DNA of 5,657 nt, from the IMG/VR virus record IMGVR_UViG_2651869696_000005, positions 1 through 5,657 of that record. One strand, 5' to 3'. A program made the translations under genes and the position numbers. The notes under the pieces were generated by a model that ran no database searches, was not told the origin of the DNA, and saw only the letters and a program-made list of their open reading frames with translations. Origin of the DNA: a virus (taxonomy: Duplodnaviria; Heunggongvirae; Uroviricota; Caudoviricetes). Shown here one piece after another: positions 2,942 through 5,657 of this stretch. Within the stretch, counting starts at the first letter, position 1, and every line of letters begins with the position of its first letter.

Positions 2942-3685
2942 ATGACAGAGACAGAATCAGCGATTCTGGCGCACGCCCGGCGATGTGCGCCAGCGGAGTC
3001 GTGCGGCTTCGTGGTGAGAACGCCGGAGGGGGAAAGCTATTTTCCCTGCGTGAATATTTCCGGTGAGCCGGAGGATTATTTCCGGATGGCTCCGGAGGAC
3101 TGGCTGCAGGCAGAAATGCAGGGTGAGATTGTGGCGCTGGTCCACAGCCACCCCAGTGGTCTGCCCTGGCTGAGTGAGGCTGACCGGCGGCTGCAGGTGC
3201 AGAGTGATTTGCCGTGGTGGCTGGTCTGCCGGGGGGCGATTCACAAGTTCCGCTGTGTGCCGCATCTCACCGGGCGGCGCTTTGAGCACGGGGTGACGGA
3301 CTGTTACACGCTGTTCCGGGACGCTTACCATCTGGCGGGGACTGAACTGCCGGATTTTCACCGGGAGGATGACTGGTGGCGTCACGGTCAGAATCTCTAT
3401 CTTGACAATATGGAGGCGACGGGTTTTTACCGTGTCGCACTGACAGAGGCGCAGCCGGGCGATGTGCTGCTGTGCTGTTTTGGTTCATCGGTGCCGAATC
3501 ACGCCGCAATTTACTGCGGCGACGGCGAGCTGCTGCACCATATTCCTGAACAACTGAGCAAACGAGAGAGGTACACCGACAAATGGCAGCGACGCACACA
3601 CTCCCTCTGGCGTCACCGGGCATGGCACGCATCTGCCTTTACGGGGATTTACAACGATTTGGCCGCCGCATCGACCTTCGTGTAA
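2942..3685 (+). CDS. K: Tail tip assembly protein K (lambda gpK-like): N-terminal JAB/MPN-type metallopeptidase motif plus C-terminal NlpC/P60-type Cys/His domain. Longest ORF 247 aa; the classical lambda annotation corresponds to the internal ATG at 3086 (199 aa)
   Basis: ORF 2942-3685 begins 5 nt after the L stop. The in-frame internal ATG at 3086 has a GGAGGA (3070-3075) 10 nt upstream and corresponds to the classical 199-aa gpK start (MAPEDWLQ...). A JAMM-like H-S-H-x7-S-x2-D motif is encoded at 3143-3184. An NlpC/P60-like catalytic Cys sits in DCYTLF (Cys codon 3302-3304) and a His in NHAAIY (3500-3502). The 3' end overlaps gene I by 103 nt, as in lambda. Confidence 0.85.
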   Translation: MTETESAILAHARRCAPAESCGFVVRTPEGESYFPCVNISGEPEDYFRMAPEDWLQAEMQGEIVALVHSHPSGLPWLSEADRRLQVQSDLPWWLVCRGAIHKFRCVPHLTGRRFEHGVTDCYTLFRDAYHLAGTELPDFHREDDWWRHGQNLYLDNMEATGFYRVALTEAQPGDVLLCCFGSSVPNHAAIYCGDGELLHHIPEQLSKRERYTDKWQRRTHSLWRHRAWHASAFTGIYNDLAAASTFV

Positions 3686-4161
3686 AAACGGGGGCCGAAG
3701 CCATCCGCGCACTGGCCACACAGATCCCGGCGTTTCGTCAGAAACTGAACGACGGCTGGTATCAGGTACGCATTGCCGGGCGTGATGCAGGCGAAACCGA
3801 ATTATCAGCCCGTCTTAATGAGCCGCTGGCAAATGGTGCAGTGATCCACATCGTGCCGCGTCTGGCGGGAGCAAAAAGTGGCGGTGTGTTTCAGGCAGTG
3901 CTGGGTGCGGCGCTGATTGCTACGGCAATCTGGATGCCGGGAATCAGTATCGCTTTCAGTGACATTCTCTTTTCAATGGGGGCAGCGATGACGCTTGGCG
4001 GTGTTGCACAGATGCTGGCACCGAAACCCAAAACCCCAACAACGACCAGACAACGGATAACGGCAAACAGAACACCTATTTCTCATCACTGGATAACATG
4101 GTTGCCCAGGGCAATATTCTGCCTGTTCTGTACGGTGAAATGCGCGTGGGGTCACGCGTAA
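3583..4161 (+). CDS. I: Tail assembly protein I (lambda gpI-like), frame-disrupted: the N-terminal ubiquitin-like domain and hydrophobic segment are intact in this frame, but the last ~40 codons are out-of-frame read-through
   Basis: The ATG at 3583 lies inside the 3' end of K in another frame. The translation MAATHTLPLASPGMARICLYGDLQRFGRRIDLRVKTGAEAIRALATQIPAFRQKL... matches lambda gpI as I recall it, including the GG (3880-3885) that ends the ubiquitin-like domain. After ...GGVAQMLAPKPKTP (about 4038) this frame stops resembling gpI and runs into a stop at 4159-4161. Confidence 0.75.
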   Translation: MAATHTLPLASPGMARICLYGDLQRFGRRIDLRVKTGAEAIRALATQIPAFRQKLNDGWYQVRIAGRDAGETELSARLNEPLANGAVIHIVPRLAGAKSGGVFQAVLGAALIATAIWMPGISIAFSDILFSMGAAMTLGGVAQMLAPKPKTPTTTRQRITANRTPISHHWITWLPRAIFCLFCTVKCAWGHA

Positions 4162-4226
4162 TTTCGCAGGAAATCAGCACGGCAGACGAAGGGGATGGTG
4201 GTCAAATCGTGGTGATTGGTCGCTGA
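3963..4226 (+). pseudogene. I: Displaced C-terminal coding segment of gene I, in a different frame (frame 3) from the I start
   Basis: Frame 3 is open from 3963 to the TGA at 4224-4226. From 4047 it encodes QTTDNGKQNTYFSSLDNMVAQGNILPVLYGEMRVGSRVISQEISTADEGDGGQIVVIGR, which matches the C-terminus of lambda gpI as I recall it. The join between the N-terminal frame and this one needs a net 1-nt length change within about 4039-4046. Confidence 0.6.
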
Positions 4227-4244
4227 TGCAAAATGTTTTATGTG

Positions 4245-4272
4245 AAACCGCCTCCGGGCGGTTTTGTCGTTT
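4245..4272 (+). terminator. Hairpin plus T-tract in the I-J intergenic gap (terminator-like; may act as a partial terminator or RNA-stability/processing element)
   Basis: A perfect 8-bp inverted repeat, AAACCGCC (4245-4252) and GGCGGTTT (4257-4264), flanks a 4-nt loop TCCG. It is followed by TGTCGTTT, so the region 4261-4272 is T-rich. It lies between the I stop (4226) and the J SD (4275-4278). Confidence 0.3.
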
Positions 4273-4274
4273 AT

Positions 4275-4278
4275 GGAG
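4275..4278 (+). promoter_or_regulatory. Shine-Dalgarno GGAG for J
   Basis: GGAG lies 8 nt upstream of the J ATG at 4287. A second purine-rich GAGGA sits at 4282-4286, immediately next to the ATG. Confidence 0.55.
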
Positions 4279-4286
4279 CGTGAGGA

Positions 4287-5657
4287 ATGGGTAAAGGCAG
4301 CAGTAAGGGGCATACCCCGCGCGAAGCGAAGGACAACCTCAAATCCACGCAGCTGCTGAGTGTGATCGATGCCATCAGCGAAGGGCCGATAGAAGGTCCG
4401 GTGGATGGATTAAAAAGCGTGCTGCTGAACAGTACGCCGGTGCTGGACAGTGAAGAGAATACCAACATCTCCGGCGTCACGGTGGTGTTCCGGGCAGGTG
4501 AGCAGGAGCAGACACCGCCGGAGGGATTTGAATCCTCCGGCTCCGAGACGGTGCTGGGTACGGAAGTGAAATACGACACGCCGATCACCCGCACCATCAC
4601 GTCGGCAAACATCGACCGTCTGCGCCTGACCTTCGGTGTGCAGGCACTGGTGGAAACCACCTCAAAGGGGGACAGGAATCCGTCGGAAGTCCGCCTGCTG
4701 GTTCAGATACAGCGTAACGGTGGCTGGGTGACGGAAAAAGACATCACCATTAAGGGTAAAACCACCTCGCAGTATCTGGCCTCGGTGGTGGTGGATAACC
4801 TGCCGCCGCGCCCGTTTAATATCCGGATGCGCAGGATGACGCCGGACAGCACCACAGACCAGCTGCAGAACAAAACGCTCTGGTCGTCATACACCGAAAT
4901 CATCGATGTGAAACAGTGCTACCCGAACACGGCACTGGTCGGCGTGCAGGTGGACTCGGAGCAGTTCGGCAGCCAGCAGGTGAGCCGTAATTATCATCTG
5001 CGCGGGCGTATTCTGCAGGTGCCGTCGAACTATAACCCGCAGACGCGGCAATACAGCGGTATCTGGGACGGAACGTTTAAGCCAGCATACAGCAACAACA
5101 TGGCCTGGTGTCTGTGGGATATGCTGACCCATCCGCGCTACGGCATGGGGAAACGTCTTGGTGCGGCGGATGTGGACAAATGGGCGCTGTATGTCATCGG
5201 CCAGCATTGCGATCAGTCGGTGCCGGACGGTTTTGGCGGCACGGAGCCGCGCATCACCTGTAATGCGTACCTGACCACACAGCGTAAGGCGTGGGATGTG
5301 CTCAGTGATTTCTGCTCTGCGATGCGCTGTATGCCGGTATGGAACGGGCAGACGCTGACGTTCGTGCAGGACCGGCCATCGGATAAGGTGTGGACCTATA
5401 ACCGCAGTAATGTGGTGATGCCGGATGATGGCGCGCCGTTCCGCTACAGCTTCAGCGCCCTGAAAGACCGCCATAATGCCGTTGAGGTGAACTGGACTGA
5501 CCCGGATAACGGCTGGGAGACGGCGACAGAGCTTGTTGAAGATACGCAGGCCATTCTCCGTTACGGTCGTAACGTCACGAAGATGGATGCCTTTGGCTGT
5601 ACCAGCCGGGGGCAGGCGCACCGCGCCGGGCTGTGGCTGATTAAAACAGAACTGCTG
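4287..5657 (+). CDS. J: Tail tip attachment protein / central tail fibre J (lambda gpJ-like), N-terminal 457 codons; 3'-truncated by window edge
   Basis: ATG at 4287-4289 with GGAG at 4275-4278 (8-nt spacer). The frame is open with no stop to the last base of the window (1371 nt = 457 codons). The translation MGKGSSKGHTPREAKDNLKSTQLLSVIDAISEGPIEGPVDGLKSVLLNSTPVLD... matches the gpJ N-terminus as I recall it. It is not in the supplied ORF track because it has no stop in the window. Confidence 0.92.
   Translation, partial: MGKGSSKGHTPREAKDNLKSTQLLSVIDAISEGPIEGPVDGLKSVLLNSTPVLDSEENTNISGVTVVFRAGEQEQTPPEGFESSGSETVLGTEVKYDTPITRTITSANIDRLRLTFGVQALVETTSKGDRNPSEVRLLVQIQRNGGWVTEKDITIKGKTTSQYLASVVVDNLPPRPFNIRMRRMTPDSTTDQLQNKTLWSSYTEIIDVKQCYPNTALVGVQVDSEQFGSQQVSRNYHLRGRILQVPSNYNPQTRQYSGIWDGTFKPAYSNNMAWCLWDMLTHPRYGMGKRLGAADVDKWALYVIGQHCDQSVPDGFGGTEPRITCNAYLTTQRKAWDVLSDFCSAMRCMPVWNGQTLTFVQDRPSDKVWTYNRSNVVMPDDGAPFRYSFSALKDRHNAVEVNWTDPDNGWETATELVEDTQAILRYGRNVTKMDAFGCTSRGQAHRAGLWLIKTELL

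Follow-up and report, generated by a model that had tools for sequence, protein, structure and literature searches.

Organization of the tail-gene window

The window, a 5,657-bp stretch of DNA analysed in its entirety, is identical to the whole of JHSV01000145.1, a short contig of an Escherichia coli draft assembly (GCA_001266155.1). Its ORF map gives a lambda-like tail module in the order H'-M-L-K-I-J', and all five genes other than I have open reading frames. The genes around I are the following, in window coordinates:

53-1912: 3' part of the tape-measure gene H (ORF map)
1909-2238: M (ORF map)
2238-2936: L (ORF map)
2942..3685, plus strand: K, intact, 247 aa, with JAB and NlpC/P60 peptidase domains (ORF list; Pfam PF14464, PF00877)
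4287..5657, plus strand: start of J, open to the contig end, 457 codons (gene table; annotated J in relatives)

Gene I lies between K, the JAB/NlpC-P60 peptidase gene, and J, as the gene for lambda gpI does, and its start overlaps the 3' end of K by 103 nt (3583-3685). The lambda-style start in the window is the ATG at 3583 (MAATHTLPL...). RefSeq annotations of relatives place the start later, giving products of 191 or 200 aa, and one phage record gives a product of 180 aa; annotations thus disagree on where I begins. The nearest relatives in complete genomes share 97.6% identity with the window across its full length, e.g., O84:H7 strain Trh52, and the nearest phage records are ~91% identical to it. 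The NCBI annotation has no CDS between K and J in either of the two contigs that carry this locus (JHSV01000145.1 and JZXF01000189.1), which fits a gene that has been flagged as disrupted.

The gap between I and J contains, by eye, a GC-rich hairpin followed by a T-rich run at 4244-4275 (AAACCGCCTCCGGGCGGTTTTGTCGTTT), and the phage record for Ayreon annotates a terminator at the region matching 4244-4275. A consensus scan of 3900-4400 for terminators and promoters called nothing, the 4244-4275 hairpin included.

Gene I is divided between two reading frames

Coding sequence for I is distributed over frames 1 and 3 of the plus strand:

3583..4161, plus strand: frame-1 ORF of I, 192 aa, comprising the genuine N-terminal part to ~4047 and then an out-of-frame tail (ORF list, tblastn)
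3622..3873, plus strand: ubiquitin-like N-terminal domain of gpI, PF06805, residues 14-97 (Pfam, E = 2.2e-24)
4047..4226, plus strand: conserved C-terminal part of gpI, in frame 3, 59 codons and a stop (tblastn, PDB match)
4048..4161, plus strand: out-of-frame tail of the frame-1 ORF, 37 codons plus TAA

PF06805 (Lambda_tail_I) scores 86.1 bits in the frame-1 ORF against a cut-off of 23.8 and covers profile positions 2-83 of 83. The ORF ends in ...APKPKTPTTTRQRITANRTPISHHWITWLPRAIFCLFCTVKCAWGHA and terminates at 4159-4161. The open stretch of frame 3 begins at 3963; from 4047 to the stop codon at 4224-4226 it encodes QTTDNGKQNTYFSSLDNMVAQGNILPVLYGEMRVGSRVISQEISTADEGDGGQIVVIGR, a peptide that matches residues 165-223 of lambda gpI in the PDB (8iyk_I) at E = 2e-33, with 56/59 residues identical. 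In place of a single uninterrupted I frame of ~200-223 aa, the window therefore holds two frames and 2 surplus nt.

The position of the break was delimited by tblastn with intact I proteins. For P0048, residues 1-154 align in frame +1 at 3583-4044 and residues 155-213 in frame +3 at 4047-4223; for P0087, residues 1-142 align in frame +1 up to 4047 and residues 143-200 in frame +3 from 4050. Within each pair of HSPs the query residues are contiguous, and the window carries 2 nt in surplus. A sequence-only reading of this DNA had claimed that I is split, passing from frame 1 to frame 3 near 4040-4049 with its C-terminus detached. Both tblastn and the ORF map agree with it, and the frame change that it expected in tblastn with intact I falls at 4044/4047 or 4047/4050. 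It described a net 1-nt change, but the length difference from every intact relative is +2 (8 versus 6 nt). The repair that it offered, removal of 4039-4049 (11 nt), works arithmetically but was rejected, as the shorter linker that it would create is absent from all relatives.

Intact relatives are 2 nt shorter

We then compared the locus with complete E. coli records at two scales. The whole I gene as query gave 11,935 places in 4,358 records; the best 40 of these span 706 nt, as against 708 nt in the window, and the best are 95.8-95.9% identical. I-like places number a median of 2 per E. coli genome and a maximum of 12. A 91-nt query centred on the junction gave 4,298 places in 3,025 complete E. 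coli records, none above 91.2% identity. All of the best 30 among these measure 89 nt, that is, 2 nt less than the query, and in an evenly spaced sample of the junction matches 59 of 60 rows cross the junction, each of the 59 being 2 nt shorter and in frame. The two-frame arrangement occurs in 0 of the 89 inspected relatives that span the junction (30 best plus 59 sampled). The comparison with related prophages that had been proposed from sequence alone thus gave a uniform outcome, with all 89 in frame and 2 nt shorter than the window.

The junction itself was also sought directly. As an exact 37-nt string it was not found among GTDB species representatives, nor as an exact 22-nt string in IMG/VR, and a looser pattern with 1-3 bases permitted at the decisive position had no match in IMG/VR, GTDB or JGI metagenomes. 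That relaxed search covered intact precursors differing by one base, e.g., ACGACCCAGACAACGG, which were likewise not found. The exact 192-aa I product is absent from a collection of 15 billion proteins and from its encoding contigs. The related-locus comparison in IMG/VR took the best 80 full-length matches, all with intact I, and gives no frameshift frequency.

Other frameshifted I genes

With the 192-aa ORF as protein query, 956 I proteins were retrieved. Among the best 120 of these 956, 20 clusters share the same out-of-frame tail and 15 of the 20 are broken within the linker QMLAPK...DNGKQ, in a ranking that is biased by the frameshifted query; the sampled complete genomes are in frame in 59 of 59 cases. 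On these two grounds we do not take the apparent hot spot in the linker as a sign that frameshifts are frequent there. Judged from the evenly spaced sample, linker frameshift lesions are rare in complete genomes.

The individual lesions have different forms. At L009 (962-1068), a C6 run is reduced to C5 relative to the intact B-type allele (defined below), and this C6-to-C5 form has 55 member sequences; at L008 (4924-5030), one base is lost. The out-of-frame tail of the window I resembles only other frameshifted I genes, and products with such tails total 209 aa in other alleles versus 192 aa in the window. The window product stops at 192 aa because its A-type background has a TAA at 4159, and this difference in length between alleles indicates that the tail is not conserved. 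Intact I alleles, for their part, show at least 16 different linkers of 8-9 residues.

One further protein, P0043 (226 aa), is an otherwise normal I with an internal insert of 25 residues (AHRQRITANRTPIFLHWIIWLPRAM) that equals the linker and C-terminal region read out of frame. The insert has the look of a short tandem duplication, out of register, after which the frame is restored. Among the complete-genome relatives, annotated frameshifts affect K (PK8241, Z1323CEC0013) and J (Z1323CEC0013), at L001 3361-4103, L092 2942-3684 and L010 986-1489; these may be either true decay or indel errors of long reads. Frameshifted tail genes are ordinary in such prophages.

The junction is a mosaic of two allele families

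The intact I alleles aligned with the window fall into two families, A-type and B-type, at a hypervariable linker between ...QMLAPK and TDNGKQ.... The A-type linker (Trh52, PK8241, O103:H2 12009) reads ACC GCA ACA ACG ACC AGC ACG GAT, encoding TATTTSTD, and the B-type linker (PhiR49_1_star, second prophage of Z1323CEC0013) reads ACC CCC CGC ACA CAG ACA ACG GAT, encoding TPRTQTTD. The two have equal total length and differ by two compensating 2-nt indels that flank a common CAG. In the window, the junction sequence within 4000-4070 is CCCAAAACCCCAACAACGACCAGACAACGGATAACGG, and its segments map as follows:

4024..4037, plus strand: linker segment AAACCCAAAACCCC, exact B-type match (PhiR49_1_star; second prophage of Z1323CEC0013)
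4037..4049, plus strand: segment CAACAACGACCAG, an A-type island in a B-type tract, exact match to Trh52, PK8241 and the first prophage of Z1323CEC0013
4045..4046, plus strand: the 2 surplus nt, i.e., the frameshift point, as placed by B-type alignment (HSP boundaries, alignments)
4047..4144, plus strand: 98-nt stretch identical to the intact B-type allele L010, beginning at the shared CAG

By exact-match mapping, neighbouring segments each match a different allele family exactly, in the order B-A-B. A site-by-site table gives the wider context: the window I is mostly A-like overall, and a B-like tract at ~4027-4100 encloses the A-type island. Aligned to A-type alleles, the surplus nucleotides are placed at 4048-4052. 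The window carries the longer version of both indels, so that compensation is lost and a net +2 results.

These alignments bear on a homopolymer origin, which the earlier reading had allowed for in describing the neighbourhood as homopolymer-rich. A4 and C4 runs do exist, at 4030-4037, but the surplus bases lie within ACGACCAGACAACGG, outside both. Slippage at a homopolymer was rejected as the cause, since the exact B-type match extends through C4 as far as 4037 and the surplus bases come only after that point. The cause looks like an A/B mosaic junction and not a slip beside homopolymers.

On the basis of the sequence comparison we infer a recombinational origin for the lesion. Two co-circulating I allele families would have been joined in the linker, either by recombination or by patchy repair of a heteroduplex. 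In gene conversion of such a heteroduplex, the two indel loops could be resolved in opposite directions, leaving the first indel in its A version and the second in its B version. Microhomology amounts to 3 nt (CAG) at the A-to-B switch and 1 nt at the B-to-A switch, which is too short for a plain homologous crossover to suffice, so that patchy mismatch repair or two successive events are assumed. Z1323CEC0013 holds an A-type and a B-type I in one chromosome (loci L092 and L010), and this co-residence, together with the median of two I-like places per genome, means that donors for inter-prophage exchange are at hand. More generally, a recombinant that takes one compensating indel from each family is frameshifted, a simple route from mosaicism of co-resident prophages to gene inactivation. 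The frameshift looks recent, given that the downstream coding sequence is undecayed and 98 nt are identical to an intact allele.

A second assembly carries the same lesion

When contigs encoding exactly the K protein WP_052925825.1 were looked up, only two were returned, JHSV01000145.1 and JZXF01000189.1. The latter (GCA_002075125.1) matches the window without a single difference between 2197 and its own end, frameshift included, and differs from it at 36 positions within 1465-2196 (H/M). Over that same interval JZXF01000189.1 has 2 differences from Trh52, as against 38 in the window. Two distinct haplotypes thus carry one and the same lesion, so that a random sequencing or read error is an unlikely source. 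The lesion is reproduced identically in an independent assembly, and the 2 surplus nt are not a length change in a homopolymer run. Support for the lesion comes from two records, both of them short, repeat-bounded draft contigs.

JZXF01000189.1 (L007 1-5654) starts at the same base as the window and ends 3 nt earlier; the shared ends suggest that both contigs are bounded by the same repeats, tail-gene sequence common to other resident prophages. Several short indels distinguish the window from Trh52 elsewhere. At the 3' end of H (1800-1890), there are 20 mismatches within 100 nt plus a compensated pair of 1-nt indels at 1864/1869. This is also where JHSV01000145.1 and JZXF01000189.1 diverge most, and it looks like a short, frame-preserving recombination patch. 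J has a compensated pair of 1-nt indels at 5047/5050 that keeps the frame, and the L-K intergenic spacer has one extra base at 2935. Tail-gene allele families often differ by short compensated frameshifts, which are the raw material for the I lesion.

A different kind of artefact would be a merger of reads from co-resident A-type and B-type prophages, with a column-wise consensus that kept both long indels. The B-A-B alternation inside 26 nt is a possible product of mixed-column consensus, although by our reasoning a de Bruijn assembler with k >= 21 cannot build a 9-13-nt island from pure A and B reads. Several I-like loci per E. coli genome are common, A and B together included, and the window, a short draft contig, has the same ends as JZXF01000189.1, as would be expected of prophage sequence flanked by repeats. 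Yet the two assemblies, with their 36 differences in H/M, share an identical 3.4 kb that contains the lesion, and a noisy consensus should not repeat exactly. The remaining genes of the contig are unbroken despite other allele-specific compensated indel pairs (1864/1869 and 5047/5050), and the change does not lie within a homopolymer. In favour of an artefact, the exact 192-aa ORF is in no read-derived (Logan or ENA) assembly of the protein collection. Taking both sides together, we regard a sequencing or assembly artefact, be it merged reads or an error common to both assemblies, as an unlikely source of the frameshift.

The best explanation, and in our judgement the probable one, is a genuine and recent +2-nt frameshift that turned I into a pseudogene and arose from an A/B mosaic junction in a lambda-like prophage. 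Among the options set out by the sequence-only reading, this favours a real inactivating prophage mutation: the lesion is repeated in a second haplotype, and no homopolymer has changed in length.

Predicted consequences for gpI and tail assembly

Classical lambda genetics places I among the genes required for active tails. By cryo-EM, residues 135-223 of lambda gpI form a trimer in the lumen of the tail tip (PMC10721106); the virion residues of gpI are given as 134-222 in PMC12617516. The trimer serves as a tripod or plug: three beta-sheet augmentations bind it to gpJ, and it holds gpH by its C-terminal helices (PMC10721106; PMC12617516).

The break in the window corresponds to residue 164/165 of lambda gpI. 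What remains in the frame-1 product is the ubiquitin-like domain with the hydrophobic segment; two thirds of the virion-resident part are lost. The detached frame-3 segment corresponds to residues 165-223 of lambda gpI, which make up most of the 135-223 plug. Translation from 3583 would yield the ubiquitin-like domain, the hydrophobic segment and 37 unrelated residues before the stop at 4159-4161. The 59-residue C-terminus of the plug would not be made, and neither pairing with gpJ nor holding of the gpH C-terminus would be expected. With the plug segment separated, the frame-1 product should be non-functional.

Separate translation of the C-terminal part was also considered. The first frame-3 ATG is at 4098 and opens a 42-aa ORF, with no Shine-Dalgarno-like sequence by eye; that ORF would be without plug residues 165-181.

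The 192-aa protein might instead be functional itself, its ubiquitin-like domain and membrane segment acting as an assembly factor, with the plug dispensable or supplied by another gene. Its N-terminal 150 residues are intact, PF06805 and the hydrophobic segment included, but conservation is highest in the C-terminal 59 residues (56/59 identical to lambda), and these are the part that is seen in the virion. There are several public clusters of alike frameshifted I proteins, one with 55 member sequences; their out-of-frame tails vary in length and break point and have no conservation of their own, and the intact form is essentially universal in complete genomes (59/59 sampled). We consider a functional 192-aa product very unlikely.

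Recoding would spare the gene by another means, a low-level -1 slip within the frame overlap at 3963-4049 that restores full-length gpI. A -1 slip anywhere from 3963, where frame 3 opens, to 4047 would give a full-length product, and the C4 run is suitably placed for a candidate P-site tRNA-Pro to move from CCA (4036-4038) back to CCC (4035-4037), a slip that is conceivable on chemical grounds. The linker is hypervariable and the changed version (…KPKTP-NNDQ-TTDNGKQ…) might be tolerated; with only one gpI trimer per virion, three copies might suffice. The downstream frame is undecayed, a feature that recent origin explains equally well. As for signals, no X XXY YYZ heptamer occurs in frame 1 over 3583-4060, and the 121 nt starting at 4020 show no folding advantage over shuffled sequence (MFE -23 kcal/mol versus a shuffle mean of -21.6, z = -0.46). 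A search of 3500-4400 against Rfam gave no match. The split is moreover unconserved (0/89 relatives), and the break lies at other bases in the other frameshifted alleles. Recoding, ranked least likely when the window was read from sequence alone, gained no support from the searches for a heptamer, a fold or an Rfam family, and we hold it to be highly improbable that the gene is expressed in this way. It is just as hard to credit that the linker is frameshift-tolerant at large, with a tRNA-Pro slip on the C-run (ACC CCA read as CCC) yielding enough full-length gpI. If that were true, this allele and other public linker frameshifts would be leaky rather than dead, and the trans-frame product would include the peptide …KPKTPNNDQTTDNGK….

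Under the preferred reading of I as a frameshifted pseudogene, we predict that the prophage cannot form infectious tails by itself and is tail-defective in any cell where no second prophage provides gpI. A lambdoid prophage with an intact I in the same cell might make up for the loss. The lesion is a routine case of prophage pseudogene formation and decay and involves no new mechanism. In annotation, I at this locus is best labelled a frameshifted pseudogene, and the prophage regarded as probably tail-defective.

Comparison with known systems

A known two-frame arrangement belongs to the same tail gene cluster, the programmed -1 frameshift of lambda G/GT, and the window I would need a slip in the same direction (-1). 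G/GT has a conserved slippery heptamer, and its two-frame arrangement is conserved across phages; in contrast, the window I has neither a slippery heptamer nor a conserved two-frame arrangement.

Other frameshifted I genes offer a further comparison. The 'tail component of prophage CP-933K' (P0031, 209 aa) and P0033 (55 members) have the same class of lesion (net -1/+2) at the same linker as the window, and share with it the out-of-frame tail …RQRITANRTPIS.HWITWLPRA.FC.FCTVKCAWGHA…. The underlying events are independent: L009 changed from C6 to C5 and L008 lost a single base, whereas the window has a +2 mosaic junction.

With lambda gpI (PDB 8IYK/8IYL/8K35/8XCG chain I, 9E7M), the window shares the position between K and J, the PF06805 domain, the hydrophobic segment and the C-terminal 59 residues. 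It differs from lambda in that the C-terminal 59 codons sit in another frame, owing to the 2 surplus nt, and in that its central hydrophobic region is the shorter variant of many E. coli prophages (~213 aa versus 223 aa in lambda). To the A-type alleles (WP_152071223.1 / WP_251302593.1; O103:H2 12009, Trh52) the window is 95.8% identical in nucleotides over the whole gene, with an exact 13-nt stretch at the junction; with the B-type alleles (PhiR49_1_star XSB43043.1; second prophage of Z1323CEC0013), it shares the exact 98-nt stretch there. In contrast to the window, the intact alleles of both families form one continuous ORF with a linker 2 nt shorter.
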